Positions 1,412 through 17,317 of a stretch of DNA of 64,000 nt are shown here, in pieces. The notes below the pieces were generated by a model. It worked only from the letters and a program-made list of their open reading frames with translations, was not told the DNA's origin and made no database searches. The DNA is from Armatimonadota bacterium (GTDB lineage Bacteria; Vulcanimicrobiota; JACPDS01; JBDRKI01). The translations under genes were made by a program, and so were the position numbers. The DNA lies in contig JBDRKI010000023.1 of NCBI GenBank assembly GCA_043814095.1, positions 10,392 through 74,391 of the forward strand, written 5' to 3'. Every line of letters starts with the position of its first letter. Within the stretch, counting starts at the first letter, position 1.

Positions 1412-1419
1412 GTATTACA

Positions 1420-2226: not shown

Positions 2227-2295
2227 TGATTTCCTCCCCTGATAGATTATTTTATCTACAACCTTCTGTTTTTTTAATATTTCTCCTTTGAAAAT

Positions 2296-2327
2296 AAAAA
2301 AGACCGTGTGTGTTTACACGGTCTTTT
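2296..2327. terminator. Intrinsic terminator closing the catabolic cluster
   Basis: AAAAGACCGTGT...ACACGGTCTTTT hairpin with A/T tails. Confidence 0.85.
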
Positions 2328-2343
2328 AATAGAAGTTTAATTT

Positions 2344-3201
2344 TTAACTGAGCGATAAAGCAGGTTTTAACAGTTCATCGGTGTATGAATCAAGATTTCT
2401 GTCTTTTATGTGATCAAATTTTCTTTTTGCGTTTATCCCGTAAGATACTGTTTTATCTTTGTCGGGCTTTAATTCCGCGAATACTATCTCTTCACTGCCT
2501 CTTGCAAGTGCCAGTTTATGGGCATTAGGGTCTACAATCATGGAATGGCCGAAATAGTAGTTTGCATCACCGTCAGGCCCCACCGTGTTTACCGCAACAA
2601 CATGAACATGGTTGTCATATGCTCTTGCCTTGTTTGTAAGATCCCAGATGTCAAAGCTTCTGAGTAAAGCCGAAGGTCTTACTATTATCTCCGCTCCTCT
2701 TAATGCCAGTATCCTTGCAAGTTCGGGGAAATCGCCGTCATAACATATCATAAGCCCGACTTTTCCGAAATCGGTATCTACTATGACGATATCTTTGCCG
2801 GGATGCGCCCATCCGCCTTCTGCATGTCTTTCAGTGGGGAATAAGTGTATTTTTCTGTAGATACCTTTTATCTCGCCCTTTTTATTTATATATACCGCGA
2901 CATTGTAGATTTTGTCTTTCTGGCGTTCATACATAGGAAGAACTATATCTACATTAAGCTCCTTGCATAAACCGCTTATAAATTCCGTGGAGCGTCCCGG
3001 TATCTGTTCTGTGTATTTTAAAAAGTTTTTCGCGGGTATGCCCGGCGCGAATGTTGTTGTTATGCTTTCCGGGAATACAATTAAATGCGGCTTGAATTCT
3101 TTAACCGCTTTTCTGGTCCATACGCCCATCTTAGTTAAGTTTTCTTCCACGGCAAGCGGTTTTGCCGCAATTTGTATCCCGCAGACTCTGCATTTTTTCA
3201 T
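2344..3201 (-). CDS. Carbon-nitrogen hydrolase (nitrilase superfamily amidase/carbamoylase)
   Basis: Catalytic E-K-C motifs FPES, YRKIHLF, ICYDGDFPE; GHSMIVDP. Confidence 0.92.
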   Translation of the reverse strand: MKKCRVCGIQIAAKPLAVEENLTKMGVWTRKAVKEFKPHLIVFPESITTTFAPGIPAKNFLKYTEQIPGRSTEFISGLCKELNVDIVLPMYERQKDKIYNVAVYINKKGEIKGIYRKIHLFPTERHAEGGWAHPGKDIVIVDTDFGKVGLMICYDGDFPELARILALRGAEIIVRPSALLRSFDIWDLTNKARAYDNHVHVVAVNTVGPDGDANYYFGHSMIVDPNAHKLALARGSEEIVFAELKPDKDKTVSYGINAKRKFDHIKDRNLDSYTDELLKPALSLS

Positions 3202-3212
3202 GTTATCTCCGT

Positions 3213-3965
3213 TTATTCCTCATGGAAGGCGACTACTCTGGCGAACGCGCTTTCCCCGCCTAAAAACTTCCAGGGGAATATGCCGATATTTGTTCTTTTA
3301 TTTAAGAGTTTATCTATTTCCCCGCCTAAATTTTCCGCATGTATAATATTGTGCGGGAATAATACTATATGCATTAACTGGTAATGATCTTTAGGAAAAA
3401 GCTGATCAAGTGTTTTACCATGTTTTTCCGCACATTCCTGGGCGAGGTCGGGTCTCCATTCCCTTATTTTGGTGTTAAACGGATGGTCCGCGCTTCCGCA
3501 GTCAACGCCTATCCATTTGATTTTTTTCTTTATGCACCACTGGGCGAATTCCATGGAGGGCCCCGGGTGTTTAATCATATATCTTACTTCATCCGCATCG
3601 GGCTGGTCCCATGCGTAATGATGGTATCCCGTATGTATAATTAGGATGTCTCTTTCTTTTACTTCAACTCTGTCTTCAATATCCTTAGAGGTATAGAAGC
3701 CGTAATCTTCCGCTATATCGCTTAGGTCAACCACCGCAGCCGGACCGTATAAATCTTCCAGGGGGACAGAGGCAATATCTCTCCCGTTTGTGCAGAAATG
3801 AAGAGATCCGTCAAGATGGGTTCCCACATGGTTGCTTGTTGTTATAAGCTGGCCGTTAGCTCCGTTGGTTGAGAGGCGTTTGAAAAATTTAACCTGCAGG
3901 GGCTCGTAAGTCGGCCATGCAGGGGTATTCGCGCCCGTATTTTGAGTTAAATCGTATAATTTCAT
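3213..3965 (-). CDS. Cyclase-family metal-dependent hydrolase (kynurenine formamidase-like)
   Basis: HVGTHLDGSLH motif (HxGTHxDxxxH), IIHTG, GVDCGSAD, HAENL. Confidence 0.9.
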   Translation of the reverse strand: MKLYDLTQNTGANTPAWPTYEPLQVKFFKRLSTNGANGQLITTSNHVGTHLDGSLHFCTNGRDIASVPLEDLYGPAAVVDLSDIAEDYGFYTSKDIEDRVEVKERDILIIHTGYHHYAWDQPDADEVRYMIKHPGPSMEFAQWCIKKKIKWIGVDCGSADHPFNTKIREWRPDLAQECAEKHGKTLDQLFPKDHYQLMHIVLFPHNIIHAENLGGEIDKLLNKRTNIGIFPWKFLGGESAFARVVAFHEE

Positions 3966-5149
3966 ATTACACCGTCCTTCTTTAATTTTTCTATCTCATT
4001 ATAATCATATTCCAGGAATTCTTCAAGTATGGAGAATGTATGCTCCCCAAGTTCCGGCGCTTTGCCTCTTTTATCGGAATCTTCGGATGAGCTCATTTTG
4101 ACTGGATTTCCCGCAAGAGTCATTCTCCCTATAACGGGATCTTCTGTTTCAACGAACATTTTTCTTATCTTTAACTGTGGATTTTTTGCTACCTCTTCCA
4201 TTTTAGCTATGCGGGTAGAGGGGATATGGTGTGTATGGAGTATTTCTTCCCATTCGGAAGCTGTTTTCTTTGAGAATAATTCTTCCAGTATCTGTGATAT
4301 TTCAATGTAGTTTTCACACCTTAGCTTATTTGTCTTAAACTTAGGGTTTTCTTTAAGTTCTATAAGCTCTAATGCATTACAGAAAGTTTCCCATATTTTA
4401 TCGTTCCCGATGGCCACTATAAGCCACGCGTCTTTTGTCTTAAATGCCTGGAAAGGGGTTATTGTCGGGTGGCGCGTGCCTAAAGGGGCAGGGGAGGACC
4501 CGTCCACAAGATACCTTATAAGGGCGTTCTCAAGTATCGCAAGCTGGCAGTCAAGCATTGATATATCAAGTTTCTGTCCCTTACCCGTTATTGTTCTCTG
4601 GTAGATAGCGGCATTTATACCTATAGCCGCGAAGAGCGCCACTACTATATCGCCGACCGACATACCCACCCTTACCGGCGGGCCTTCAGGCCAGCCGGTT
4701 ATACTCATCATGCCGCCGAGCGCCTGGACTATCATATCATAAGCAGGCTTATTAGCCCAGGGTCCGGTATGGCCGAACCCCGATAAAGATGCGTATATTA
4801 ATTTAGGATTTAATTCTTTTAATGTTTCATACCCGAGCCCTAATTTCTCCATAGTTCCCGGACGGAAGTTTTCTACCAGAACATCCGCTTTTTTTACAAA
4901 CCTTTTTATTATTTCAATACCTTCTTCTTTTTTAAGATCAACGGTTATGCTTTCTTTCTCCCTGTTAATGCTTAAAAAATAGACGCTTTTCTCGTTTTTA
5001 AACGGCCCGTAATGGCGGGAATCATCTCCTTTTACGGGGTGTTCTATTTTAACAACACGGGCTCCCATCTCACGAAGGAGCATGGTGCAGTATGGTCCGG
5101 CAAGTACCCGGGACATATCAAGTACTACTATATTTTCCAGAGGTTTCAT
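3962..5149 (-). CDS. Class III CoA-transferase (CaiB/BaiF/Frc family)
   Basis: VLDMSRVLAGPYC, VENFRPG, SGFGHTGP, catalytic Asp in SVGDIV, APELGEHT. Confidence 0.95.
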   Translation of the reverse strand: MKPLENIVVLDMSRVLAGPYCTMLLREMGARVVKIEHPVKGDDSRHYGPFKNEKSVYFLSINREKESITVDLKKEEGIEIIKRFVKKADVLVENFRPGTMEKLGLGYETLKELNPKLIYASLSGFGHTGPWANKPAYDMIVQALGGMMSITGWPEGPPVRVGMSVGDIVVALFAAIGINAAIYQRTITGKGQKLDISMLDCQLAILENALIRYLVDGSSPAPLGTRHPTITPFQAFKTKDAWLIVAIGNDKIWETFCNALELIELKENPKFKTNKLRCENYIEISQILEELFSKKTASEWEEILHTHHIPSTRIAKMEEVAKNPQLKIRKMFVETEDPVIGRMTLAGNPVKMSSSEDSDKRGKAPELGEHTFSILEEFLEYDYNEIEKLKKDGVI

Positions 5150-5165
5150 GTTTTTCTCCTGGTTT

Positions 5166-5388
5166 TTAATGTTTGTTTATGTGTAAAATTTGTTTTGTTT
5201 TTTGCAGAAAATCAGCAGCAGATTCAATACATGAAGAAGCCCCTTCTTTGGAGAATTCTCCATGATAGTCGGCGCTTTCCCTAAGTATCATAGCAGAATG
5301 TAGATTCTTTAATAATACTTCCTTTAAAGGGTATGATTTTTTGCCTTTCAATTGCTTTTTGAAATTCTAAGTCCTCTTTTCTTCCCAT
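5166..5388 (-). pseudogene. Internally deleted, frameshifted HEPN-domain toxin
   Basis: N-terminus MGRKEDLEFQKAIERQKIIPFK (ATG 5388, overlapping the MNT stop) is out of frame with the HEPN C-terminus AMILRESADY...AADFL; too short for a HEPN domain. Confidence 0.7.
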
Positions 5389-5903
5389 AATAGAATACCT
5401 CTTTCTAATTCTTCGTAAAAGACAGGATTGTTTTTTTTGGTTTTTATAAGCTCATTGGGTGTTTTAATAACATATTGAATCTTTTCTCTCAAGCTGTCTT
5501 TAAAAATTATTTTTTCGGCTTTGTCCGGGTATTGTGTAATAATAAAAATATCTATATCGCTTTGAGAGTGATTTTTTCCCGTTGCGCAGCTTCCGTAAAG
5601 AATTATTTTTATGGATATTTCTTTCAGTTTGTCAATTAACGGTTGTAAAAAAGTAGCGGTTTGCAATATTTTTAAATGCTTTATAATTATACTGTCCGTA
5701 GGTGCTTTATAGAAAGACATTCTGCCGCGTTTTTCTCTTAAAATTAATCCCTTTTCAGCCAAATTTCTCAATGCGAAATTTGTTCCTGCTCTGCTTACTC
5801 CTGTTAATTTTGAAATTTCACGGTCGAAATATTCATTGCCCGGATTTTGAATAAGGAAAGAGAGTATCTTTTGCGCATTAGTAAAAAACAAGAGATTTTG
5901 CAT
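5367..5903 (-). CDS. wHTH + minimal nucleotidyltransferase (MNT) antitoxin-like protein
   Basis: N-terminal HTH (REISKLTGVSRAG); GSx10DxD motif GSCATGKNHSQSDID. Confidence 0.88.
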   Translation of the reverse strand: MQNLLFFTNAQKILSFLIQNPGNEYFDREISKLTGVSRAGTNFALRNLAEKGLILREKRGRMSFYKAPTDSIIIKHLKILQTATFLQPLIDKLKEISIKIILYGSCATGKNHSQSDIDIFIITQYPDKAEKIIFKDSLREKIQYVIKTPNELIKTKKNNPVFYEELERGILLWEEKRT

Positions 5904-5915
5904 TACAAACGCCCC

Positions 5916-5969
5916 AATCTATTATATTAGATTTAAATCTATTATAATAGATTTAAAGTTTTAAGTCAA
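5916..5969 (-). promoter_or_regulatory. Sigma70 promoter with overlapping tandem palindromic operator
   Basis: Minus strand TTGACT-17nt-TATAAT; perfect 26-bp palindrome TTTAAATCTATTATAATAGATTTAAA (5932-5957) plus a near copy 20 bp away. Confidence 0.8.
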
Positions 5970-5982
5970 GTATTACATATTG

Positions 5983-7236
5983 TTATACTTTTATTTTTTC
6001 CATATCTTCAACATACGCCTCAAAGGCTTCTTCAAAGCAGTTTCCGGGAGGTTTAACGAGCCCTGCTCCCACCTGTCCTATACCTGCTTCTTTATGGGCT
6101 ATGCCGGTATTTATAGCGGGAAGTATCCCCGTTTCAATTATTTTTGCAAGATTAAATCCTGTAGGCGTGCCCCTGAAGTTGACTGCCGGTATCTTATAGG
6201 TTGTGTTTTCCGCGTCGGTAATCTGGTACATGTCGAGCGTTGTTTTTACGGCGTCACGCGGCGTGCCGCCCACAAACTGGACTATAGCAGGCGCGCCTGC
6301 CATTGCTACACCGCCTATGCCGGAGGTCTCGGTAATAACACTGTCCCCTATATCCGGGTTAGCATCGTCTTTTGTAAATCCGGGGAAGTATAATCCATCC
6401 ACATCCTGCGCGGGTCCTGTGAACCACTTATCCGGGAAATGGCTTATCTTTATCCCGAATTCGGTCCCGTTTCTTGCCATTGTTGTAATTATACAGCTCC
6501 CGTTTATGCCTTCAGCGGGCATAAGGGCGCATTTTGCGGCCGGCATTGTGAGATTAAGGAAGAAATGGTCATTGCTGTGTATAAATTCTAAAACTTTTGA
6601 AATTGTTTCTTTATCAAAGTTTGTTTTAACTATTGAAGGGGCAATTTCCCTTATAAACAGGGATGTGCCGGCTTTGTTTCTGTTATGGCCTTCGTCTCCC
6701 ATAAGGAGCGCCTGGGCTATAAGGTTTTTAAGATTAAGCTCGCCGCCATAGATTTTAAGAGCTTCAGACAATACGGGATAAAGCACATCTTCCATCCATT
6801 TTAATCTTGTTATTACTTCTTCAGAATACGCGCCGTATCTTAAGACTTTGCCTAATCCCTCATTAAGTGTGCAGTATGCCTTGTTTCCGTAAGTTTTATT
6901 TTCTACTATAAATACTGGCATGCTCGGTGTTATAACTCCCGCCATAGGGCCTACGGAACTGTGATGGTGGCAGGGTGCGAATTTTATTTCCCCGCTTTTG
7001 GCTAAAATTTCAGCTTCTTGAGGAGTTTTGGCCATCCCTTCATATATAATGCCGCCTATGATAGCGCCGCGGAGCGGCCCTGACATCTTTTCCCATGTTA
7101 TGGGAGGGCCTGCATGCAGGAAGAGATTTTTTTCCATGTTAGGTATAACATCTATGGCTTTCCCGAAACCCGTAAGGGTGGGTTGTGCCTGCATAATGGT
7201 ATCAATGACTTTTTTATTAGATTGATCAATATTCAT
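5983..7236 (-). CDS. ylbE: YlbE/YahG (DUF1116) protein, AllG-like oxamate carbamoyltransferase subunit
   Basis: LHAGPP, PCHHHSSVGPMAG, LNEGLGKVLRYGA, MGDEGHNRN, DIGDSVITET, INTGIAHKEAGIGQVGAG. Confidence 0.93.
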   Translation of the reverse strand: MNIDQSNKKVIDTIMQAQPTLTGFGKAIDVIPNMEKNLFLHAGPPITWEKMSGPLRGAIIGGIIYEGMAKTPQEAEILAKSGEIKFAPCHHHSSVGPMAGVITPSMPVFIVENKTYGNKAYCTLNEGLGKVLRYGAYSEEVITRLKWMEDVLYPVLSEALKIYGGELNLKNLIAQALLMGDEGHNRNKAGTSLFIREIAPSIVKTNFDKETISKVLEFIHSNDHFFLNLTMPAAKCALMPAEGINGSCIITTMARNGTEFGIKISHFPDKWFTGPAQDVDGLYFPGFTKDDANPDIGDSVITETSGIGGVAMAGAPAIVQFVGGTPRDAVKTTLDMYQITDAENTTYKIPAVNFRGTPTGFNLAKIIETGILPAINTGIAHKEAGIGQVGAGLVKPPGNCFEEAFEAYVEDMEKIKV

Positions 7237-7308
7237 AATTTACCTCTCAATAATTAATATAATTATAGCAAGTAAATTATAACATTGTGGAATTAGTGGA
7301 GCAAGTAC

Positions 7309-8157
7309 TTAAATCCCGATGATTCTTTTTAAGCCGCGGGGGAGCCGGTACCATTTTCTGCCCTGCACTTTTCTTATTTTCTCAGGTACGGTTCTTGTGG
7401 ATGGTTTTAACGGGCTTTTTGCTCTTGCGCCTGTAGGGAGGTCCGGTTTTGGGGCGGCAATCTGTTTTTTTCCGAGTTTTACAAAATCATCAAATCTTTC
7501 AAGAGAGCCGTTAATTCCCGGTTGGTAATATTTTTTAATGGCTGCTTCAAGTTTAAACTTCATAGCCAGATATCCGGTTTTTTTGTCTGTACATATCTTT
7601 TTAAGAGAGCTGTCTAGAATTCTGTTTAGCCGTTTTGAGATTCGATACCCTATATTATCCTTGCTTACATAAGCGGCCTGGCGTATCTCGTATTGAAATA
7701 TCCAGTTAATGTCTTTAACGCCGCTTATCCCGTAATCTACCAGAAGGGATGTAAATTGTCTCATTAGGTTTCTAAAGGCTCTTTCCTCATGGCTAAGTTC
7801 TGTAATATAGATGGTTTTAGTTCTTTCTGTCAGATTTTTACAAAGCTGGAAAAATTTATCTGAGCATTTATTATATCTGTTTTTACAAAGCCGGTATTTT
7901 TTAAATTTTTTGATGCTTCTGAATCCCTGCAGTCTTGTTAATTCTTTATCCAGGTCGCCCATTAAATTCCTTGTCTTGTGAATCTGGTCAAGGATTTTTA
8001 CACATTCCGGGTCTTTTTCAATTTTTTGCGCGAACCGGTTTATAAAATCAGATACTTGTTTGCGGGGAAATGTCTTTAGAAGTTCATCCCCGTTTTTTGC
8101 GGGTGATGAATTAAAATCTGAATTTTGTCCTGTTATTTTAATTATTGATGCATTCAT
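7309..8157 (-). CDS. Hypothetical basic protein
   Basis: 282-aa ORF with RBS GAGG; no recognised motif. Confidence 0.6.
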   Translation of the reverse strand: MNASIIKITGQNSDFNSSPAKNGDELLKTFPRKQVSDFINRFAQKIEKDPECVKILDQIHKTRNLMGDLDKELTRLQGFRSIKKFKKYRLCKNRYNKCSDKFFQLCKNLTERTKTIYITELSHEERAFRNLMRQFTSLLVDYGISGVKDINWIFQYEIRQAAYVSKDNIGYRISKRLNRILDSSLKKICTDKKTGYLAMKFKLEAAIKKYYQPGINGSLERFDDFVKLGKKQIAAPKPDLPTGARAKSPLKPSTRTVPEKIRKVQGRKWYRLPRGLKRIIGI

Positions 8158-8197
8158 TATCAGTCCTCTATTTATCTTAAGAAAGTATTATAATTAT

Positions 8198-9187
8198 TTA
8201 ACCGGATATGTCAATTACGCTGTCTACAAGCCCATAGAGCTCTTTATAGCTGTCCACTTTATATATATTATTCCTGAAAGCCGCGGCTCCTTTTATCCCT
8301 TTAAAATAATAAACAGCCATTTTACGGGCAAGGGGAACCGCTCTTTTCTCTCCGTAATATTCTCTTATGTATTCCGCGTGACGCAAGAAAACTTCTTTCT
8401 TTTCTGAAATATCGGGATAAGTTGTTACAGAATCAGTATCTGCCGCCGCTTCTATTTCTTTGAATATCCACGGGTTTCCGAATGCACCCCTTGCTATCAT
8501 AACACCGTCCACGCCTGTTTTCTCAACCATATTTTTTACATCTTCTGTGTTCATCAAGCCGCCGTTTCCCATAACAGGGATATGCATATCTTTTTTAATC
8601 TGCGCGATAGTTTCTATATCAACCGGCCCTGTATAGAATTCTTCCCTTGTTCTGCCGTGGATAGTGATTAAGTCTATGCCTTCATCCTCGGCTATTCTTG
8701 CAAGCTCCGGCGCTGTTTTATTATTCTTCGACCAGCCGGTTCTCATTTTGACCGATAATATGCCTTTATGCTCACTCCTTGCGGCCTTAATTATCTCTTT
8801 AGCATTATCAAGATTCTGCATTAGCGCTGCTCCGGCGCCTTCTTTTACTATTTTTCTTACAGGACACCCCATGTTTATGTCTATCCACCTGAAACCGTCT
8901 TTCTGGGAAAGGATATAAGCTGCTTTTTTTATCCAGTCAGGCTTACTTCCCACAATCTGGACCGCAAAGAATTCTTCTCCGGCATCCTTTAAGTATTCTT
9001 CTTGTGTTTTTTTATTGCCGTATATAAGAAGGCCGGTATGCACCATCTCGGAGAATAATACTTTGCCTCCTACCTCCGCCAGGATTTTCCTGAAAGGATA
9101 ATCAGAATACCCGCTCATAGGCGACATTACTATGCGGTTTGGGATTTCTATATCACGGATTGTTAGGGGTTGTATTAGGTGTTTCAT
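8198..9187 (-). CDS. dusB: tRNA-dihydrouridine synthase (DusB-like)
   Basis: SPMSGYSDYPFR, DINMGCP, HGRT, GNGG, MIARGAFGNPW. Confidence 0.92.
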   Translation of the reverse strand: MKHLIQPLTIRDIEIPNRIVMSPMSGYSDYPFRKILAEVGGKVLFSEMVHTGLLIYGNKKTQEEYLKDAGEEFFAVQIVGSKPDWIKKAAYILSQKDGFRWIDINMGCPVRKIVKEGAGAALMQNLDNAKEIIKAARSEHKGILSVKMRTGWSKNNKTAPELARIAEDEGIDLITIHGRTREEFYTGPVDIETIAQIKKDMHIPVMGNGGLMNTEDVKNMVEKTGVDGVMIARGAFGNPWIFKEIEAAADTDSVTTYPDISEKKEVFLRHAEYIREYYGEKRAVPLARKMAVYYFKGIKGAAAFRNNIYKVDSYKELYGLVDSVIDISG

Positions 9188-9197
9188 AATATTACTG

Positions 9198-9380
9198 TTA
9201 TTTTCTCAATTTATTATAACGTTCCAGCAGGTCCAGCATTTTTTTGTTTCCGCCTGCCGGAGGGCGCCACTGGACAGACACAACTTTTGTATTTTCTTTT
9301 TTAAGATTTTCCGCAAAAGAGGAAAGACCGATATTTAGGACTTTTAATTCTTTATTTATTAGGTTTGTGTTGTTTTTCAT
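9198..9380 (-). CDS. Small FdrA-associated protein (split-off FdrA C-terminal segment)
   Basis: KVLNIGLSSFAENL...VQWRPPAGGN motif typical of the FdrA tail; RBS AGGTG; directly follows fdrA. Confidence 0.8.
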   Translation of the reverse strand: MKNNTNLINKELKVLNIGLSSFAENLKKENTKVVSVQWRPPAGGNKKMLDLLERYNKLRK

Positions 9381-9389
9381 AAAATCACC

Positions 9390-10922
9390 TTAATTCAGTA
9401 ATATTTTTGCCAGTTTAACCATTTCCGCGTTTGTCGGCATGACAATAATACCCGCATCTTCAAGAATTTTCTTTTGATCTGAATACTTCTGCGGGTCGTC
9501 TTCCGTGCCGCATACTTCAGCTAAGAAAGTTATGTGAATATTTTTTTTATTTGCTTCATCGCGTATCGTAGTTACCGCTTTTACAAGTTCGCCCGCAGGG
9601 TCCGGATGTGAGCCGTATCCAAGCATTACATCAAGAATAATAATGCGTATGTTATCCAAATCTTTATCAGCAAGCATTCTTTCATTTCTTGATACGGGAT
9701 CAATCATCGGGTGGGGTCGGCCTTGAGTGAATTCATCTTCCCCGAGATCAAGTACTGTATTTTCTATGGATTTTCCGCTGTCGGATAATTTGTATTTTTT
9801 ATCAAGCGGGATGTTTGAATAAATAGGGGAGAACCCGCTCAGCATAAGTATTGCTTCCTTGCAGACCGTACCTCCGGTATAAAAACCGCGCACATATTTC
9901 TGGCCTGATTTGTATTTCTCTTTTTCCTGTTTTATGATTTTTTCTGTATCAGTGTCAAAAGCTTTCTCCTGTATCCCGGATGATATGACACCGCATGCTT
10001 TTACGGCGGAATCGGCGAGAGTTTGTGCGTATATTGCGCCGGACGAGGCTATCTCGCCTTCGGGAGCGCCTATAAAATGAACAACAACCGGTTTAGAAGC
10101 GTTTTTTATCCTGTTTAATATTTTTCCGGCAACTTCTTTTTCCGGCGGTTTTGATATGAGGATTATTACGGAAGTATTATTATCGTTAAGAAGCATCTCA
10201 AGTCCGGCAAGCATTGTTATCCCGCCTACTTCGTTTGACAGGTCGCGCCCGCCCGTCCCTATTGCCTGTGATATGCCTTCTCCCAGTTTATGAACGCATA
10301 CTGATACTTCCTGGATCCCGGTGCCTGCTGCCCCGACTATGCCTACTTTCCCGCGCCTTACGAGGTTGGCAAATGCTAGGGGCTTTCCGTCTATTATGGC
10401 CGTACCGCAGTCGGGTCCCATAACCAGAAGTCTCTTTTCATCCGCGTACTGTTTTAAATTCTTTTCGTCTTCAATAGATACATTGTCGCTGAATATCATT
10501 ACATTTATGTTATTATCAAGGCATTTTCTGGCTTCCCTTGCCGCGTATTCACCGGGTATTGATATAAGGGCGAGGTTTGTATCCGGCTGGGACTTTAAAG
10601 CGCCCTCAAAAGTCGCGGGATTATATTCTTCGTCTTCCTCATCATCCGCGGATGATGTGAAGTGGTTGTTTATTACATCAAGCGCGGTTTTTATTAACGC
10701 TTCATTTTCAACACAGATTGCTATTACAAGGTCATTAACGCCGGCTCCTTCTATTTTTTTGTCTTTAAATCCCATATCTGCAAGGATTGATTTATTATGG
10801 TCTGTGCCCATGGAGACGCTCGCGCTTTTTACGCCTTTTGTATCAGTGAGCTTTCTTGATAAAAGCATTAAAGTAACCGAATCAAAATATGAGTTTTTCT
10901 TTATATCTATATAGGTATTCAT
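9390..10922 (-). CDS. fdrA: FdrA (SucD-like acyl-CoA synthetase fold), AllF-like subunit
   Basis: YFDSVTLM, FSDNVS, MGPDCGT, GTGGRDL, DLGEDEFTQGRPHPMIDP, GYGSHPDPA; start moved to ATG 10922 with RBS AAGGAG. Confidence 0.95.
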   Translation of the reverse strand: MNTYIDIKKNSYFDSVTLMLLSRKLTDTKGVKSASVSMGTDHNKSILADMGFKDKKIEGAGVNDLVIAICVENEALIKTALDVINNHFTSSADDEEDEEYNPATFEGALKSQPDTNLALISIPGEYAAREARKCLDNNINVMIFSDNVSIEDEKNLKQYADEKRLLVMGPDCGTAIIDGKPLAFANLVRRGKVGIVGAAGTGIQEVSVCVHKLGEGISQAIGTGGRDLSNEVGGITMLAGLEMLLNDNNTSVIILISKPPEKEVAGKILNRIKNASKPVVVHFIGAPEGEIASSGAIYAQTLADSAVKACGVISSGIQEKAFDTDTEKIIKQEKEKYKSGQKYVRGFYTGGTVCKEAILMLSGFSPIYSNIPLDKKYKLSDSGKSIENTVLDLGEDEFTQGRPHPMIDPVSRNERMLADKDLDNIRIIILDVMLGYGSHPDPAGELVKAVTTIRDEANKKNIHITFLAEVCGTEDDPQKYSDQKKILEDAGIIVMPTNAEMVKLAKILLN

Positions 10923-10992
10923 AAGAATTCTCCTTAAGTCATTATGCCGTAAAAAGATTATAACCTTATTCTTTGACTGTTTCAAGGCAGGA

Positions 10993-11033
10993 ATAATAAA
11001 AGACCTTTTTTATCAATAAAGGTCTTTTATTAT
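10993..11033. terminator. Hairpin/terminator between membrane-protein gene and fdrA
   Basis: ATAATAAAAGACCTTT...AAAGGTCTTTTATTAT inverted repeat. Confidence 0.6.
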
Positions 11034-11064
11034 ACATTTGATATAATTTATGACAATGATTTAA

Positions 11065-11670
11065 TTATGATTCTTTTATAACAGAAACTTCTTCTTCCTT
11101 CACATTAACCGCTTTAGGAGCTTTTACATCTTCATACATAAGCACTATGGCCGTTATTGCTATCGGCATTGTCACAAGCATGCCTATCCCGAAAAACAAT
11201 GCGCCGGCCGTTAAGATTATTCCCGCAAGAAGGGCAAATACGATATATTTCAGCCAGTCAGTCGCGGCAATATCCTTGCTCTTCATCATTGCTTCCCAGA
11301 AGTCTTTCTCCCCGTCAAGGATTATAAGGTAGGTAAAGAGGAAAGCACCGATAACTATAAGCCCCGGGATTACAAGAAGAAGAAGCCCCAGCGCGGTTAA
11401 TAAGGTTATAACTATGCCCGCAAGCAGGGAAGGTATTATTAATTCGGTTTTCTTAAATACAATAAACAGGTCGCCGACTTCCGCAGTGCCTTCGGTAATT
11501 TTTCTTTTTACGAAGTAATAATAACCTATCAGGAAAAGTCCCGATACAAAACCGCCGATCCATATAATGCTGAGAAGGGCGGTTACAGCAAGGTAAACCA
11601 GAGTGGCCAGTATATATCCTCCCCAGTCTTTCCCGACCTCGGTTAAAGCTTCTCCGAAATATTTTGTCAT
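11065..11670 (-). CDS. Integral membrane protein (DUF975-like)
   Basis: Several TM helices; GLLLLVIPG and EAMMKSK patterns. Confidence 0.7.
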   Translation of the reverse strand: MTKYFGEALTEVGKDWGGYILATLVYLAVTALLSIIWIGGFVSGLFLIGYYYFVKRKITEGTAEVGDLFIVFKKTELIIPSLLAGIVITLLTALGLLLLVIPGLIVIGAFLFTYLIILDGEKDFWEAMMKSKDIAATDWLKYIVFALLAGIILTAGALFFGIGMLVTMPIAITAIVLMYEDVKAPKAVNVKEEEVSVIKES

Positions 11671-11777
11671 AATAACCTCCGTATTGTTTATCCGTAAAAA
11701 GCCGCATTTTCTCCGGATTTTAATTTATTCTACAATAGTATACGATTTGCCTTTATAAAAGTTTCAAATTATAAATT

Positions 11778-12206
11778 TTATTTCATGCCTATAAGAATAA
11801 CTCCCAAGGAAGTAAAAATAAGGCCGGTTATGTTAACTAATGTAACCGGTTCTTTTAATAGTATGGTTCCTAGCACATATCCGAGTACAGGTGTTAATCC
11901 GAACGCTATGGGGATTACCCGGCTTAAGTGGCCCGTGCTTATACCCATGTAAAAGCAGAGCATCCCGAAAGATCCGGCTATTACCCCGCCTCCTATTATG
12001 ATATAAAGAAGGGGTTTTATGCCGCAGCTTGACACAGATCCCCATTTTGTGAAGCTGAACAAGCTTAATACGATAAGGGCTATAAATGTACGCATTGTAA
12101 TACCTGCCACAGGCGGGATACCCCCCATATTAAGCCCCTTCTTTTCAAAAAAGCCGCCCACACTCCAGAGGACGGCCGTAAGAATTGCCAGAGTTACTGC
12201 TTTCAT
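11778..12206 (-). CDS. EamA/DMT family small transporter
   Basis: 142 aa, ~5 TM, LLKEPVT motif. Confidence 0.85.
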   Translation of the reverse strand: MKAVTLAILTAVLWSVGGFFEKKGLNMGGIPPVAGITMRTFIALIVLSLFSFTKWGSVSSCGIKPLLYIIIGGGVIAGSFGMLCFYMGISTGHLSRVIPIAFGLTPVLGYVLGTILLKEPVTLVNITGLIFTSLGVILIGMK

Positions 12207-12208
12207 TT

Positions 12209-13042
12209 TTATTCTCCCGAAAATAAGTTAAACATAAAATCCACGCCGCATAGAAAATCTTTGCTTGATGTGTGGCCGTAATTTATGTTTTCAAGTTCTT
12301 CTTCTTTTAACGGTATATCGCTTGCCAGTTTTTCAAAAAGGATAAACTGCCAGTCGCTTACATATCCCATCATCGCCAGGACAATATAATACCACGATAT
12401 CCTGCCGGTTTTTTTGTAAATAACCCGCGCTGTTTTTAAAAACGGCGGGTTCCATATTTTTTCTGTCCTGCCGGCTTCAATAAGAAGCTTCATCACAAGT
12501 ATCGTCCCGCATATAAAATCATCAGTTGAAGGGGTAAGGCCTTCCCCGAGGCCGGCTATATCTGTCAGATTTTCATAGAATTTGCCGGGGTTATTTTTTT
12601 TCCACGCTTTTTCCATTTTTTCTATATTTATTTTTATAAGGTCAAGATACGCAAAATCGGTTTTTTTAACATAAGAGTTAAGCGCGGAAATATTTTGTTT
12701 GTTTAAAGGGTCAAATTTAATATCATTAATTTTTTTTGAAGAATGGTCAATTGGATTAAGGTAAATCATTTTGTCGTCGGAGTAACATCTCCCGCGCTGT
12801 ATATGAAAATATTTTTTTTCTTTAAAAAAATCCGGCATCCTGTAAGGGAATACGGCTGTTACCGGGTTGCACTGTTCGTTTGTTCCGGCAAGCAGGGTAA
12901 CTATTTTAGAATTATTTAAGGAAACATAAGCGGTCCTGTGCGAACGCGATATGATTTCACAGCTGTACCTGCGCGGATCAAAGAAAAGTTTTCTAATGTG
13001 TCTGTCTACAACTATATCAACCGGTTGATGCATAGTACACAA
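12209..13042 (-). CDS. ylbF: DUF2877/YlbF protein, AllH-like subunit
   Basis: GLGEGLTPSTDDFICG and YGHTSSKDFLCG motifs. Confidence 0.85.
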   Translation of the reverse strand: MCTMHQPVDIVVDRHIRKLFFDPRRYSCEIISRSHRTAYVSLNNSKIVTLLAGTNEQCNPVTAVFPYRMPDFFKEKKYFHIQRGRCYSDDKMIYLNPIDHSSKKINDIKFDPLNKQNISALNSYVKKTDFAYLDLIKINIEKMEKAWKKNNPGKFYENLTDIAGLGEGLTPSTDDFICGTILVMKLLIEAGRTEKIWNPPFLKTARVIYKKTGRISWYYIVLAMMGYVSDWQFILFEKLASDIPLKEEELENINYGHTSSKDFLCGVDFMFNLFSGE

Positions 13043-13045
13043 TCC

Positions 13046-15436
13046 TTATTTATTTTTTTTTAATGCTTCAAGTCCTTTGAGTATTTTTTCCGCCGTAACG
13101 GGGAGATCTTTTATCCTTACCCCCGTCGCATTATATACCGCGTTGGCTATTGCGGCAGGTGTCGGTATCATTGTATGTTCGCCGACGCCTCTTGCGCCGT
13201 AGGGCCCGTCGAGCTGCGCGGTCTCCACGAAGGTTGCTATCATCTCTTCAGGCATATCTTTGGATGTGGGTATCTTGTAATCAACAAAGGACTGATTTAA
13301 GACCCTGCCTGTTTTCTCATCCAGATGGAGCTGCTCCATAATGCCCGCGCCCATGCCCTGCACGATGCCTCCGTATGCCTGACCGAGCGCTCCCTGCGGG
13401 TTTATTACCTTGCCTATATCATATGTGCAGGCAACTTTAAAAATTGTAATCCTGCCGGTATCCGGGTCTACGGAAAGATCCACTGCCTGGCCTCCGAAAG
13501 TCCAGTTTGCGACCGGTTTAGGGGACTGTCCTGTTTCCGGATCGCAGTTTATGCACCCTTGAGCCGTAAAGTATCCTCTGCCGGCAACAGCCCCGCCTAT
13601 TGTATGGCCGTCAGGGTACTGGTATCCCATGCAGATATCCTTAATGTCTATCTTTTTGGACTTATCTGTTTTTGAAATTATATATCCGTCCTTTATTTCT
13701 AAATCAGAAAGTGATCTCTGCAGGGCCTCTTTGGCTATAGTGAATAATTGTTTTTTTGCATCTTCACAGGCCTTCTTCACTGCATTCCCGCAGGAGAATG
13801 TCAATCTGCTTGCGACTGTCTGCCATTCATATGGCGAGTAATCCGTATCAGGCAGTGCTATGACAGCGACTTTTTCAACAGGGATGCCCAGTTCTTCTGC
13901 GGCAATCTGAGCCATCGCGGTCATAACGCCCTGGCCGATCTCCATGCCGCTGAACATAAGCTCTATCCCCCCGTCTTCGTTGAATTTTAACATGGCGGCC
14001 GAAGTTGCATTATTAGGCATGGCAGGGGCTTTCTGCGCCAGAGCAAATCCTACCGCCCTGTATTTTGGTCTTTCCTTATAGTAGTCTATATTTTTTGTAA
14101 CTTCATTGATACATTTTTCTATATCACCGGTATTTTTTGTTACATACTGGCCTGTTGCCGTATGGGATCCTTCTCTTAATATATTTTTCTTTCTGAATTC
14201 TACCGGATCAAATCCTAAATCCCGGGCCATCATATCCATATGCTGTTCAATGCCCCAGTGGATTTCGCTCATCCCGAACCCGCGGAAAGCGCTCCCGACA
14301 GGTCTGTTGGTGTATACTCCTATTGAATCTCCCTTAAGGTTGTCTATATTATAGGGGCCGCATAATGAATAGCCGGCCGCCCTTACTATATTAACACCGT
14401 ATCCGGCGTATGCGCCGCAGTCCCAGATATACTCGTTTTCCTGCGCTATGATTCTTCCGTCTTTTGTAATGCCGGATTTTATCCTTATGTGGCATGCCTG
14501 TCTTACTACAACAGCGTGCATCTCTTCTTCTCTTGTGAGTATGAGTTTTACAGGGAGCCCCGTGCATTTCATGGAGAGAGCCACGGCTATGGGTTCTATG
14601 TTAATACCTGCCTTACATCCGAACCCCCCGCCTACGAAGGGAGCTATTACTCTGAAATCGTTTATTTTTTTACCGAAACAGTGTGAGAGAAGATATCTTA
14701 CGGTAAAAGGCGACTGGCATGAAGACCATACGGTTGTTTTCCCCGCGTGGTCTGTTACCGCTATAGACCCGTGAGTCTCCATGGGTACATGCTGTATCTG
14801 CGGAACATAGAATCTGTTTTCAATTATATGGTCAGCTTCTTTAAACGCTTTTTTAGGATCGCCCTTCCTTATTTTAAAGTGATTCGCGATATTGGTATGG
14901 GGAACGGGGTTTATTGCGCTTACGTGAAAATATTTATGAAGCTCGGGATGAACAAGCGGCGCGCCTTTTTTCATTCCCTGTATGGGATCAAAGTTCGGTT
15001 TAAGTTTTTTGTATTTCACTTTTATAAGGGAGAGGGCTCGCTCCGCTATCTCTTCGGTTTCGGCCGCGACTGCCGCGACCGGCTCGCCCACATAACGCAC
15101 TTTTTCCATGGCGAATATGTACTGGTCAACATGGTATATGCCCACATTATACGGGTAATCTTTTCCTGTTATAACTGCCTTTACCCCGGGAAGCTTTTCC
15201 GCTTCGGTTGTGTCTATTTCTATCATAGCGTGGGGTTCAGCGCTTCTTAAAACTTTCGCTATTAATGTGCCTGAAAGCTGGATATCATCAACATATTTTG
15301 CGGCGCCAGTTACTTTCGCGAGGGCGTCTACACGCGCGGTTTTTTTGCCTATAACATTATATTCTTCTTTTTCTATGTCCATAGATTCTATCTGGTTGAA
15401 TATTTCGGTCTGTGTCATAACTTCAGCGTTTTTCAT
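13046..15436 (-). CDS. Xanthine dehydrogenase-family Mo-hydroxylase, molybdopterin-binding large subunit
   Basis: KVTGAAKY, QHVPMETH, VGGGFGCK, AFRGFG, EIGQG, GPYGARGVGE, PAAIANAV. Confidence 0.95.
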   Translation of the reverse strand: MKNAEVMTQTEIFNQIESMDIEKEEYNVIGKKTARVDALAKVTGAAKYVDDIQLSGTLIAKVLRSAEPHAMIEIDTTEAEKLPGVKAVITGKDYPYNVGIYHVDQYIFAMEKVRYVGEPVAAVAAETEEIAERALSLIKVKYKKLKPNFDPIQGMKKGAPLVHPELHKYFHVSAINPVPHTNIANHFKIRKGDPKKAFKEADHIIENRFYVPQIQHVPMETHGSIAVTDHAGKTTVWSSCQSPFTVRYLLSHCFGKKINDFRVIAPFVGGGFGCKAGINIEPIAVALSMKCTGLPVKLILTREEEMHAVVVRQACHIRIKSGITKDGRIIAQENEYIWDCGAYAGYGVNIVRAAGYSLCGPYNIDNLKGDSIGVYTNRPVGSAFRGFGMSEIHWGIEQHMDMMARDLGFDPVEFRKKNILREGSHTATGQYVTKNTGDIEKCINEVTKNIDYYKERPKYRAVGFALAQKAPAMPNNATSAAMLKFNEDGGIELMFSGMEIGQGVMTAMAQIAAEELGIPVEKVAVIALPDTDYSPYEWQTVASRLTFSCGNAVKKACEDAKKQLFTIAKEALQRSLSDLEIKDGYIISKTDKSKKIDIKDICMGYQYPDGHTIGGAVAGRGYFTAQGCINCDPETGQSPKPVANWTFGGQAVDLSVDPDTGRITIFKVACTYDIGKVINPQGALGQAYGGIVQGMGAGIMEQLHLDEKTGRVLNQSFVDYKIPTSKDMPEEMIATFVETAQLDGPYGARGVGEHTMIPTPAAIANAVYNATGVRIKDLPVTAEKILKGLEALKKNK

Positions 15437-15451
15437 ATTTACCTCCGCGTA

Positions 15452-15919
15452 TTACACATTCACGTTTATACTGTCTCTTATGGCTTCAATAATTTGTTTG
15501 TAACCTGTGCACCTGCATAAATTACCAGCAATAGCTTCTTTTATATCTTCATCTGACGCTTCCGGGTTTTTCATTAAGAGTGCTTTCGCGCTCATAAGCA
15601 TCCCGGGGGTGCAGAACCCGCACTGTATGGCGTTATGTTCTATGAATTTTTTCTGTAAGGGGTCAAGCTCCCCGTCTTTCGGGAGCCCCTCAACGGTTAT
15701 GATATCCGCACCGTCTGCTTCAACTGCCAGCATTAAACAGGAATTAACGGCTTTCCCGTTTACTATGACGGTGCATGCTCCGCATTCGCCTTCACCGCAT
15801 CCTTCTTTTGTGCCTGTGAGATAGAGTACTTCCCTTAAGAATTTTAATAAGGTCATGGAGTTGTCAGAAATCTGTTTTGTTTCCTTTTTACCGTTTATCG
15901 TAAAGGTTATGGTTTTCAT
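15452..15919 (-). CDS. Mo-hydroxylase 2Fe-2S small subunit (CoxS/XdhC-like)
   Basis: GCGEGECGACTV, QCGFCTPG, NLCRCTGY. Confidence 0.96.
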   Translation of the reverse strand: MKTITFTINGKKETKQISDNSMTLLKFLREVLYLTGTKEGCGEGECGACTVIVNGKAVNSCLMLAVEADGADIITVEGLPKDGELDPLQKKFIEHNAIQCGFCTPGMLMSAKALLMKNPEASDEDIKEAIAGNLCRCTGYKQIIEAIRDSINVNV

Positions 15920-15930
15920 AATCCACCTCG

Positions 15931-16167
15931 TTAATTTTTTAAAAGCCGTTCCAGTGTCTCTGGTGTAATATCGATATCTCTTAGAATTTTTCTGAGAAGG
16001 CCCCGGCCTATGGTTTTTCCTTTGTGAACGGGTATGGTTGTTATTCTTCCGTCGGGATGATGGTATCTCCAGTGACTTCCTCTGGATTTTCTTGTATTTT
16101 TAAAACCGAGTTTTTCAATAATAACTATTAATTTCTCAGGTTTTAAAACAGGTAATTTTTTACTCAT
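15931..16167 (-). CDS. hicA: HicA family mRNA interferase toxin
   Basis: GF...RGSHW..HPDGR.TTIPVH...GLLRKILR. Confidence 0.93.
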   Translation of the reverse strand: MSKKLPVLKPEKLIVIIEKLGFKNTRKSRGSHWRYHHPDGRITTIPVHKGKTIGRGLLRKILRDIDITPETLERLLKN

Positions 16168-16397
16168 ACGGCTATCTCCAGATATTTAACTCCTATAATT
16201 TCGGGATACCGCAAATTAATAACCTTTTTAGATTGTTCGACTTCTTCCAAACAAATTTTAATCACATCTTTTATATTTTTCATAGCTTCTTCAAAAGTAT
16301 CGCCTTGAGAATAACAACCTTCCAAACTCGGACAGGAAACTATATATTTCCCGTCTTCATCCATTTCCACCAAAACCGGTACATTGTATTTTTTCAT
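16164..16397 (-). CDS. hicB: HicB family antitoxin (short form, no DNA-binding domain)
   Basis: EDGKYIVSCPSLEGCYSQGDTFEEAMKNIKD; ATGA overlap with hicA. Confidence 0.93.
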   Translation of the reverse strand: MKKYNVPVLVEMDEDGKYIVSCPSLEGCYSQGDTFEEAMKNIKDVIKICLEEVEQSKKVINLRYPEIIGVKYLEIAV

Positions 16398-16408
16398 AAT
16401 CCACCTCG

Positions 16409-17245
16409 TTAATTTTTTAGCTCATTTACCGCTTTTATAAATAGTTCTTTGGCAATTTTACATCTGAAATCAGCCGAGCCTCTTAAATCCGATATGGGTT
16501 TAAGAGGGAGGAGTTCCGCCGCTTTTGTAATTGATTTTAGATCCAGGCCGTGTTTTGCAAGGTGTTTCTCGCTGTTTTTGGCCCTTGCGGTTATGGCCGC
16601 GCATGCTCCCACTGCAGCTCTTATACCGGGTTTTGATTTGTGGCTTACAAATGCCACAGCAATATTTACCGTTGAAAGATCAACTGCTTTTCTTCTTGAG
16701 AATTTATAGAATATGCTTTTAACGCCTTCCGGCTTAGGTATTGTTACCGATTCTACAAATTCATCCGGCTTAAGTACGGTCTGTCCGGGGCCTTTAAAGA
16801 ATTTATGTATAGATATGCTCTTTTTTCTGCCGCCTGATATTATATTAAGCTTAGCGTCATAAATTAGGAGTGCAGGGAGGGTATCTGCCGCGGGGGACGC
16901 GTTGCAGATATTTCCCGCAAGAGTTGCCCTGTTTCTTATCTGGTATGAACCGACCTCCCTTGCGCCCTGTGTAAGGGAAGGATAATATTCATTTATAATA
17001 TTATTTTCAGCCAGCTGGTTTAAGCTGACTCCTGCGCCTATTGTAATATCTTTTTTGGATTCAACAATAGAATTTATACCTTTAATATTCTTAATATCTA
17101 TTACGCATGAGGGTTTTATTGTTTTATGGCGCAGTTTAACGAAAAGATCTGTGCCGCCCCCCAAAAGATATGTATCTTTTTTATTTTTCTTGAGGAGTTT
17201 TTTAAGTTCGGCCGTGCTTGAAGGTCTATAGTATTCAAAATTCAT
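16409..17245 (-). CDS. Mo-hydroxylase FAD-binding medium subunit (CoxM/XdhB-like)
   Basis: GGGTDL, QIRNRATLAGNICNASPAADT, PISDLRGSADFR. Confidence 0.95.
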   Translation of the reverse strand: MNFEYYRPSSTAELKKLLKKNKKDTYLLGGGTDLFVKLRHKTIKPSCVIDIKNIKGINSIVESKKDITIGAGVSLNQLAENNIINEYYPSLTQGAREVGSYQIRNRATLAGNICNASPAADTLPALLIYDAKLNIISGGRKKSISIHKFFKGPGQTVLKPDEFVESVTIPKPEGVKSIFYKFSRRKAVDLSTVNIAVAFVSHKSKPGIRAAVGACAAITARAKNSEKHLAKHGLDLKSITKAAELLPLKPISDLRGSADFRCKIAKELFIKAVNELKN

Positions 17246-17288: not shown

Positions 17289-17317
17289 ATTCTAACAAAA
17301 TTAATAATAAAAGTCAA
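17289..17317 (-). promoter_or_regulatory. Sigma70-type promoter of the Mo-hydroxylase operon
   Basis: Minus strand TTGACT-17nt-TAGAAT. Confidence 0.65.

Follow-up and report, generated by a model that had tools for sequence, protein, structure and literature searches.

What might a bacterium break down with a gene run in which an AllFGH-like carbamoyltransferase complex stands beside a molybdenum (Mo) hydroxylase, two hydrolases and a CoA-transferase? This question is raised by a 64,000-nucleotide stretch of contig JBDRKI010000023.1 (assembly GCA_043814095.1, Armatimonadota bacterium), which we call the window, and in which Pfam and NCBIfam annotation places a co-oriented run of such genes on the minus strand at 2344-17245. 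An earlier note on this DNA, made from the letters and reading frames alone, had named these families as co-oriented, which they are, and had proposed an N-heterocycle catabolic pathway different from the anaerobic allantoin pathway of E. coli, with an oxalurate-like intermediate and with oxamate or oxalate downstream. We retain the distinctness of the route and revise its substrate. On a balance only slightly better than even, we favor the view that the window holds one copy of a cassette, conserved in many lineages, by which anaerobes break down uracil, and possibly thymine, oxidatively, with its steps inferred from family, context and chemistry; as far as function can be inferred in this manner, it is probably a new form of pyrimidine catabolism. 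The elements of the proposed pathway, all of whose genes are full length in the window, are given below in the direction of transcription.

17289-17317, minus strand: promoter-like site TTGACT-17-TAGAAT, with TG, upstream of the gene for the flavin adenine dinucleotide (FAD) subunit (consensus match only)
16409-17245, minus strand: FAD-binding subunit of the xanthine dehydrogenase (XDH) family, 278 amino acids (Pfam FAD_binding_5, E 4.6e-52, and CO_deh_flav_C)
15452-15919, minus strand: XDH-family 2Fe-2S (FeS) subunit, 155 amino acids (Pfam Fer2_2 and Fer2)
13046-15436, minus strand: molybdopterin (large) subunit, 796 amino acids (Pfam Ald_Xan_dh_C, MoCoBD_1 and MoCoBD_2)
12209-13042, minus strand: AllH/DUF2877-like subunit, 277 amino acids (Pfam AllH, E 2.2e-15)
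9390-10985, minus strand: FdrA/AllF-like subunit, 531 amino acids as listed (NCBIfam NF004760, 530.9 against a cut-off of 433)
9198-9380, minus strand: free-standing FdrA tail, 60 amino acids (47% identity to E. coli FdrA residues 501-553, E 9e-14)
5983-7236, minus strand: AllG/DUF1116-like subunit, 417 amino acids (Pfam AllG, E 6.8e-103)
3962-5149, minus strand: class III CoA-transferase, 395 amino acids (Pfam CoA_transf_3, E 4e-129)
3213-3965, minus strand: cyclase-family metal hydrolase of the kynurenine-formamidase fold, 250 amino acids (Pfam Cyclase, PF04199, E 6.8e-36)
2344-3201, minus strand: nitrilase-superfamily amidase (CN-hydrolase), 285 amino acids (Pfam CN_hydrolase, E 9.7e-49)
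2298-2327, minus strand: terminator-like hairpin, a 12-bp stem followed by a T run, just 3' of the CN-hydrolase gene (consensus match only)

The promoter at about 17300 and the terminator at about 2310 of the earlier note thus correspond to the sites at 17317-17289 and 2327-2298; promoter-like sites in the region are barely more frequent than in shuffled sequence (62 found against 47.6 +/- 7.4). Its gene inventory holds for every gene named and had passed over hicBA, a 201-residue membrane protein, dusB, a 282-residue open reading frame (ORF) and a helix-turn-helix (HTH) nucleotidyltransferase, which are discussed below as insertions.

Conservation of the cassette across phyla

Using an alignment of 12 AllG homologues we collected 80 loci from one-genome-per-species contigs, these being the best 80 of at least 592 confirmed AllG matches; 42 of them, the full-flank loci, have at least 6 kb on both sides of AllG. 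Genes were counted by blastp with the proteins of the window, and further families were recovered by all-against-all clustering of the called genes.

FdrA: 72 of 80 loci and 39 of 42 full-flank loci, the other three having FdrA-AllG fusions (blastp)
Cyclase: 67 of 80 loci and 42 of 42 full-flank loci (blastp)
Mo subunit: 51 of 80 loci and 35 of 42 full-flank loci (blastp)
FeS subunit: 47 of 80 loci and 32 of 42 full-flank loci (blastp)
FAD subunit: 45 of 80 loci and 31 of 42 full-flank loci (blastp)
CoA-transferase: 14 of 80 loci and 13 of 42 full-flank loci (blastp)
CN-hydrolase: 6 of 80 loci and 4 of 42 full-flank loci (blastp)
AllH family: 48 loci (clustering)
Thiolase-like protein: 25 loci (clustering)
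NCS2 permease: 23 loci (clustering)
230-residue protein without a Pfam family: 22 loci (clustering)
DUF35 protein: 19 loci (clustering)
Amidase-signature protein: 14 loci (clustering)
PucR regulators of the "purine catabolism" type: 6 loci (clustering)
Decarboxylase beta subunit: 4 loci (clustering)
Carbamate kinase: 4 loci (clustering)

These loci span more than 12 phyla, including Bacillota, Thermotogota, Spirochaetota, Chloroflexota, Verrucomicrobiota, Elusimicrobiota and Cloacimonadota, with further representatives in Riflebacteria, Eisenbacteria, Caldiserica, Myxococcota, Acidobacteriota and other lineages. The full gene set of the window recurs in Alkaliphilus transvaalensis ATCC 700919 (L030) and in an Alkaliphilus metagenome-assembled genome (L016). 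The co-clustering is far beyond chance, and the gene-neighborhood survey that the earlier note had suggested finds the families together in many genomes, with the cyclase in every full-flank locus and the Mo subunit in 35 of the 42. The AllG of the window is 67-70% identical to Bacillota and Thermotogota versions and 74% identical to entries from Muiribacterium and Wallbacteria, while it shares only 51-58% identity with the AllG of 14 genomes of its own phylum; this greater closeness to other phyla hints at a horizontal acquisition of the cassette.

A molybdenum hydroxylase lacking the xanthine-binding glutamate

The Pfam domains of the three Mo-hydroxylase subunits reproduce the FAD, 2Fe-2S and molybdenum-cofactor architecture of xanthine dehydrogenase, and their closest references are HcrABC (PDB 1rm6) as the solved structure and the E. 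coli-type XdhABC among the NCBIfam models. Against both, however, the equivalog scores of the window all fail: XdhA is the top NCBIfam model for the Mo subunit at 580.6 bits, yet the XDH cut-offs (XdhA, PucD, XdhB) are all missed, with 580.6 against 780, 555.8 against 916, 432.7 against 783.65 and 298.2 against 849.5; the FAD subunit lies below all NCBIfam equivalog cut-offs; and those of HcrA and HcrB are missed by far (alpha 560.8 against 994.55, beta 111.9 against 404.55), the FAD subunit being short at 278 residues and covering the HcrB model only in part. The large subunit reads GGGFGCKA at residues 269-276, as the earlier note had seen; opposite Ala276 in the alignment stand Glu803 of human xanthine oxidoreductase, which is the E of "GGKETR" in 2ckj, and the V found in 2e1q, a mutant entry that marks the Glu803 position. 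We take Glu803, which follows GGGFGGK in the human enzyme, to be the glutamate that binds the purine or xanthine substrate. Alanine occupies the equivalent position in all 41 of the 41 cassette Mo subunits, and a "GVGE" motif near the C-terminus of the window's protein may correspond to the catalytic Glu of the family. As the binding Glu is absent and the equivalog cut-offs failed, the Mo enzyme, judged by its sequence, is not a canonical xanthine dehydrogenase, and the earlier suspicion that its substrate may not be xanthine is borne out to this extent.

A distinct subfamily of the AllFGH complex

For E. coli AllFGH (PMC11326118) a transcarbamylase activity is described that was measured with purified protein and that acts on oxalurate and oxamate. 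The window likewise co-encodes three subunits homologous to this FdrA-YlbE-YlbF complex, with FdrA above the NCBIfam subfamily cut-off, and the chemistry presumed common to it and to AllFGH with AllK is phosphorolysis of an N-acylurea to carbamoyl phosphate and an amide, followed by ATP formation by carbamate kinase. There are also differences: in place of allB, allC, allD and allE, the genes around the complex here encode a Mo hydroxylase and a cyclase-fold hydrolase, its carbamate kinase is unlinked, the FdrA tail is a separate 60-residue gene, and the likely substrate is one carbon longer. FdrA is 39% identical to E. coli FdrA by BLASTP, AllG 46% identical to YlbE (with a match to PDB 3clq at E 2.5e-135) and AllH 27% identical to YlbF over 118 residues, whereas identity of AllG to its homologues within the cassette is 58-84%, with very close ones across many lineages at 67-84%. 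Sharing no more than 39%, 46% and 27% of their residues with the E. coli subunits, the cassette versions appear from their sequences to be a separate, highly conserved AllFGH subfamily.

The true start of FdrA is probably an ATG 21 codons into the listed ORF. The protein retains the CoA_binding and Ligase_CoA domains (Pfam), but reads "ASSGA" where its succinyl-CoA-synthetase relatives carry the phosphohistidine motif "GHAGA"; on account of this replacement FdrA, despite its succinyl-CoA-synthetase alpha fold, would be no ordinary CoA ligase. The split tail of FdrA that the earlier note had recognized is real and is encoded by the 60-residue frame at 9198-9380. A 282-residue ORF in the same region was considered as the tail and dropped, having no similarity to E. 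coli FdrA. In other loci the corresponding module of 50-60 residues is found on FdrA, on AllG or free-standing: it forms the N-terminus of the 468-residue AllG of Clostridium rhizosphaerae (L084), and in L024, L034 and L041 (about 8084-11239) FdrA and AllG constitute a single open frame of about 1050 residues.

An adjacent carbamate kinase of the allK type is not seen in the window, and the single carbamate kinase of the genome lies on contig C36; the enzyme is encoded inside four of the 80 sister loci and exceeds the arcC cut-off in L034. On C36 (L005) a row of genes at 9995-15311 encodes the kinase together with an OTC/YgeW-like carbamoyltransferase, a hydrolase of the YgeY family that exceeds its cut-off, a 243-residue protein and a serine hydroxymethyltransferase; this row could be a second catabolic unit yielding carbamoyl phosphate. 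Elsewhere in the genome, contig C5 (L006) encodes at 5830-8538 a second, divergent pair of a short FdrA (432 residues) and an AllG (465 residues, 38% identical to that of the window), which adjoins a gene weakly similar to a sigma-54 activator (PrdR) and lacks neighboring XDH or cyclase genes.

Hydrolases and interchangeable downstream modules

We propose from its family that the cyclase is a ring-opening amidohydrolase. Kynurenine formamidases in the PDB align with it across the H-x-G-T-H-x-D metal motif, and it belongs to the formamidase fold family without being its equivalog (TIGR03035, 53.5 against a cut-off of 223.05). The CN-hydrolase, a proposed malonamate amidase on the grounds of its relatives, is omega-amidase-like, with yeast Nit3 and mouse Nit2 as its nearest PDB matches, and reaches at best 112 against a cut-off of 500 among the NCBIfam equivalogs. 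It carries the motifs FPE, RKIHL and ICYD, which we take to represent the Glu-Lys-Cys triad of the superfamily, and in sister loci it always lies beside the cyclase or the CoA-transferase. The latter is a proposed dicarboxylate (malonate) CoA-transferase: it is of the dicarboxylate type, with YfdE and succinate-hydroxymethylglutarate CoA-transferase (SUGCT) as its top PDB matches, and its scores are below all equivalog cut-offs (YfdE 386.1 against 522, Frc 291.4 against 504.2).

It is the sister loci that point to malonate. In 14 loci the CoA-transferase is accompanied by an amidase-signature protein whose top PDB match is malonamidase E2 (E 5e-47, nearly full length), a match that had been predicted ahead of the search. 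In L049 MdcA, MdcC, MdcD and MdcE are all above their equivalog cut-offs; in L066 MdcA is above its cut-off and is joined by biotin-type decarboxylase subunits; and in L052 an MmdA-like carboxyltransferase and a beta subunit lie inside the cassette. The carboxyltransferases of L052 and L066 score best, below the cut-off, as methylmalonyl-CoA decarboxylase alpha. Proteins like malonamidase E2 and the malonate decarboxylases (Mdc/Mad) are encoded in sister loci; in the same cluster positions the window has non-homologous proteins, a nitrilase-superfamily amidase and a class III CoA-transferase. A tblastn search of the window's genome found no homologue of the malonate decarboxylase beta subunit.

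In about 20 loci the amidase and the CoA-transferase are replaced by a trio of GNAT, thiolase and DUF35 proteins. Clostridium rhizosphaerae YIM B02515 represents this GNAT and thiolase type and has a UraA-type permease. The 230-residue member of the trio has a GNAT fold (AlphaFold pLDDT 91, Foldseek probability 1.0, template-modeling score about 0.5), with which its Atlas features agree; a search for it in five genomes that have amidase and CoA-transferase loci gave no match, in a search that had no positive control. The genome of the window holds both modules, the trio lying at 204-4068 of the 6.2-kb contig C42 (L097), with HigB-like and HTH genes to one side of it and ParE-like genes to the other. 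Both in the window and on C42, pathway genes of this genome have toxin-antitoxin genes around them. For the trio, a role in malonyl handling is our guess. Two further candidates were set aside: the Amidohydro_1 gene at 23615-24940, considered as the partner of the cluster-embedded amidohydrolase of L025, is only 28% identical to it, and the permease-adjacent deaminase of L078, considered as a cytosine deaminase, meets the TadA cut-off and was dropped as evidence.

Linked permeases and genome-wide searches

The NCS2 permeases linked to the cassette point to uracil. There are 23 of these, of which one, a fragment, gave no score, and all 22 scorable ones match uracil permease/RutG better than xanthine permease, with four exceeding the UraA equivalog cut-off. 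Searches for the partners of the canonical pathways were made in the window and in its genome, which is 98.97% complete. As the earlier note had stated, no allB, allC, allD, allE or carbamate kinase gene accompanies the cluster in the window; since this context is absent, the cassette, as judged by its gene content, is not a member of the allantoin system. A canonical allantoin pathway elsewhere in the genome was also considered and rejected: E. coli AllC, AllD, AllE and GlxK have no tblastn match in the genome at E <= 1e-3, the best genome match to allantoinase scores 278 bits against a cut-off of 357.85, and the search for carbamate kinase led to C36 only. The distinctness of the route from that of E. 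coli, as first suggested, is supported. Oxalate disposal by oxalyl-CoA decarboxylase was likewise discarded, there being no match to this enzyme in the genome. A search for an AtzD-fold (PF09663) barbiturase gave no genome match; the control genomes gave none either, so that this search is without a positive control.

A proposed route from uracil to malonyl-CoA

Anaerobically, uracil is known to be degraded by the reductive route. The oxidative pyrimidine pathway of Rhodococcus and others, which is aerobic, uses uracil/thymine dehydrogenase, barbiturase and ureidomalonase. In the route we propose, the three-subunit Mo hydroxylase would oxidize uracil at C6 to barbiturate, passing the electrons to a low-potential acceptor, and the cyclase-fold metal hydrolase would open the barbiturate ring to give ureidomalonate, an N-acylurea one carbon longer than oxalurate. 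AllF with its 60-residue tail, AllG and AllH would then convert ureidomalonate to carbamoyl phosphate and malonamate, by analogy with the action of E. coli AllFGH on oxalurate, and the carbamate kinase encoded on C36 could draw ATP from carbamoyl phosphate with release of NH3 and CO2. Malonamate would be hydrolyzed to malonate by the CN-hydrolase, and malonate in turn activated to malonyl-CoA by the class III CoA-transferase. The downstream modules would be interchangeable among loci: either an amidase with a CoA-transferase or a malonate decarboxylase, so that malonate is activated or decarboxylated, or the GNAT/thiolase/DUF35 trio.

This scheme keeps the architecture of the earlier proposal, in which a Mo hydroxylase is combined with a ring hydrolase of the cyclase fold, an AllFGH-like complex whose substrate is an N-carbamoyl amide, an amidase and a CoA-transferase; the substrate is revised to uracil. 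Ring opening by the cyclase is likewise kept, whereas the CN-hydrolase, which had been given a share in it, more likely deamidates the AllFGH product. Oxamate or oxalate as the downstream acid gives way to malonamate and malonate as the likelier ones, as the sister loci have a malonamidase-E2-like amidase and malonate decarboxylase genes and the genome of the window has no match to oxalyl-CoA decarboxylase.

By analogy, the cassette resembles a hybrid between the AllFGHK end of anaerobic allantoin use in E. coli and the aerobic oxidative pyrimidine pathway. With the latter it would have in common the intermediates uracil, barbiturate, ureidomalonate and malonate and a first enzyme of the Mo-Fe-flavin type. 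It would differ in that the ring is opened by a kynurenine-formamidase-fold enzyme in place of an AtzD-fold barbiturase, in that the third step is phosphorolytic, ATP-yielding and leads to malonamate where the aerobic one is hydrolytic and leads to urea and malonate, and in that the carriers of the cassette are anaerobes. The more general proposition, on which we consider the evidence evenly poised, is that anaerobes of more than 12 phyla share an undescribed ATP-yielding oxidative pyrimidine pathway with a new Mo-hydroxylase clade, a formamidase-fold replacement of barbiturase, phosphorolysis of ureidomalonate by AllFGH and interchangeable downstream modules. A literature search, to whose coverage most subscription journals do not belong, found no description of the cassette or of an anaerobic barbiturate/malonamate route.

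Several observations weigh against the uracil proposal. A uracil-type permease occurs in only 23 of the 80 loci; none is linked to the cluster in the window, and the single NCS2 gene of the genome lies apart from it. We found no precedent for a cyclase-fold enzyme that hydrolyzes barbiturate, and the "ASSGA" of FdrA leaves the chemistry of AllFGH unexplained. The top PDB match of the Mo subunit is the alpha subunit of 4-hydroxybenzoyl-CoA reductase, an enzyme of a CoA thioester; PucR regulators, of the "purine catabolism" type, are found in six loci; and the GNAT/thiolase/DUF35 trio of about 20 loci is unexplained by the route. As the sample comprises the 80 best-scoring loci among at least 592 matches, its counts hold for this AllG subfamily only. 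Finally, the insertions in the window's copy, described below, might have silenced the operon here.

Alternative substrates and chemistries

The alternative closest to the proposed route keeps its logic and changes the ring, the substrate being thymine alone, a modified base or a uracil substituted at position 5. We think this improbable, if still worth keeping in view: the permease and malonate evidence cannot separate uracil from close analogues, and the carboxyltransferases of L052 and L066, scoring best (below cut-off) as methylmalonyl-CoA decarboxylase alpha, would fit thymine, but uracil is the most abundant candidate, four permeases exceed the UraA cut-off and the malonate-specific MdcA is above its cut-off in L049 and L066. 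The original oxalurate version would have the N-acylurea be oxalurate or an analogue, derived from a heterocycle such as a parabanate-like ring, with AllFGH producing oxamate, the CN-hydrolase oxalate and the CoA-transferase oxalyl-CoA. It draws on the action of E. coli AllFGH on oxalurate and oxamate (PMC11326118) and on the oxalate CoA-transferase YfdE being the top match of the CoA-transferase in both NCBIfam (386 bits) and the PDB. The YfdE score is nevertheless under its cut-off (386 against 522), the 99%-complete genome has no match to oxalyl-CoA decarboxylase, AllC, AllD and AllE were not found and allantoinase is under its cut-off. Moreover, sister loci contain malonamidase-like amidase and malonate decarboxylase rather than oxalate enzymes, the linked permeases are of the uracil type, and AllG is 46% identical to its E. 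coli counterpart as against 58-84% within the cassette subfamily; the chance that we would give this version is small.

Purine fermentation is a known pathway of clostridia, and one could imagine that the Mo enzyme interconverts purines and xanthine, that the cyclase is a xanthine amidohydrolase and that AllFGH takes the ureido group of 4-ureidoimidazole-5-carboxylate as carbamoyl phosphate. The standing of XdhA as top NCBIfam model for the Mo subunit (580.6 bits), the PucR regulators of six loci and the YqeC, XdhC and MobA maturation genes nearby all speak for this. Against it, each of the 41 Mo subunits has Ala in place of the xanthine-binding Glu, all XDH equivalog cut-offs failed, the 22 of 22 scorable permeases favor uracil permease/RutG over xanthine permease, imidazole-handling genes are not recurrent in the loci, and the malonamidase-like and malonate decarboxylase genes have no role in such a pathway, which makes us hold it for an outside chance. 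The last alternative is a CoA-thioester route in which FdrA, AllG and AllH, as an ADP-forming acyl-CoA synthetase, activate a heteroaromatic acid, the CoA ester is the substrate of the HcrA-like Mo enzyme, and thiolase/DUF35, GNAT and CoA-transferase convert CoA intermediates. It would account for the CoA_binding and Ligase_CoA domains kept in FdrA, for 4-hydroxybenzoyl-CoA reductase as the closest solved relative of the Mo subunit and for the recurrence of CoA-dependent families. We consider it highly improbable, as the catalytic histidine of succinyl-CoA synthetase is missing from FdrA, transcarbamylase activity is proven for the E. coli homologue (PMC11326118), the HcrA and HcrB cut-offs are missed (560.8 against 994.55 and 111.9 against 404.55) with a short FAD subunit, and the carbamate kinase, uracil permeases and malonate enzymes would be left unexplained.

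Insertions in the copy of the window

The cassette is interrupted here by five insertions, which are shared by none of the 80 sister loci. The genes concerned, and a promoter site associated with one of them, are as follows.

16164-16397, minus strand: hicB-like antitoxin (Pfam HicB_lk_antitox, E 6e-12)
15931-16167, minus strand: hicA-like toxin (Pfam HicA_toxin, E 6e-17)
11778-12206, minus strand: single-domain EamA membrane protein, 142 amino acids (Pfam EamA, E 8e-15), specific to the window
11065-11670, minus strand: membrane protein, 201 amino acids, with weak UPF0259/DUF975 likeness, specific to the window
8198-9187, minus strand: dusB, tRNA dihydrouridine synthase (TIGR00737, 324.5 against a cut-off of 293.3), between the FdrA tail and AllG
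8214-8187: perfect TTGACA-16-TATAAT site in front of the 282-residue ORF (consensus match)
7309-8157, minus strand: orphan ORF, 282 amino acids, without Pfam or NCBIfam match
5367-5903, minus strand: winged-helix and nucleotidyltransferase protein, MntA-like (Pfam Polbeta, NTP_transf_2 and HTH_24; MntA_antitoxin below cut-off), specific to the window

The hicB/hicA pair fills 490 bases between the FAD and FeS genes and is not part of the conserved cassette. Flanking it are the two copies (15913-15941 and 16391-16419) of a perfect direct repeat of 29 bp that contains a stop codon, a ribosome-binding site and the next start codon; because the repeat duplicates the stop-codon region, the hicA and FAD-subunit products share their last residues. 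In a blastp comparison dusB, the 282-residue ORF, the HTH-nucleotidyltransferase, the EamA protein, the 201-residue protein and the APC permease upstream had no homologue in any of the 80 sister loci, and these genes are therefore local additions to the conserved cassette. The dusB gene is the only dus match in the genome; finding a flavoenzyme that reduces uridine within a putative uracil cluster is suggestive on chemical grounds. None of the 80 loci has it. For the 282-residue ORF a word-index search of 5.8 billion clusters returned only the protein itself, an exhaustive HMMER search of 1.84 billion representatives one distant repeat-protein match, and the Atlas no usable match. The HTH-nucleotidyltransferase is of the antitoxin type, and the 218 bases to the next gene leave no space for a HepT-type partner.

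Other features of the window

Beyond the cluster, the plus strand carries at 19782-23597 an ORF of 1271 residues without Pfam or NCBIfam match. Fragments of Rfam group II intron domains are found at 27591-27762, 45842-46130 and 43462-43899, and a 145-residue ORF with a Cas12f1-like TNB domain is probably a TnpB remnant.

Significance for anaerobic pyrimidine use

Decaying biomass and guts are rich in pyrimidines. If the proposed route is true, these compounds would be a new class of fermentable substrate for many uncultured anaerobes, with energy conserved as carbamoyl phosphate, and functions would be provided for a large conserved set of genes now annotated as "DUF1116/DUF2877/FdrA", "cyclase" and "xanthine dehydrogenase". 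It would also extend the range of substrates handled by AllFGH, an enzyme class identified only recently, and add a new specificity to the Mo hydroxylases. Two of the carriers, A. transvaalensis and C. rhizosphaerae, are in culture, which makes the route directly testable.

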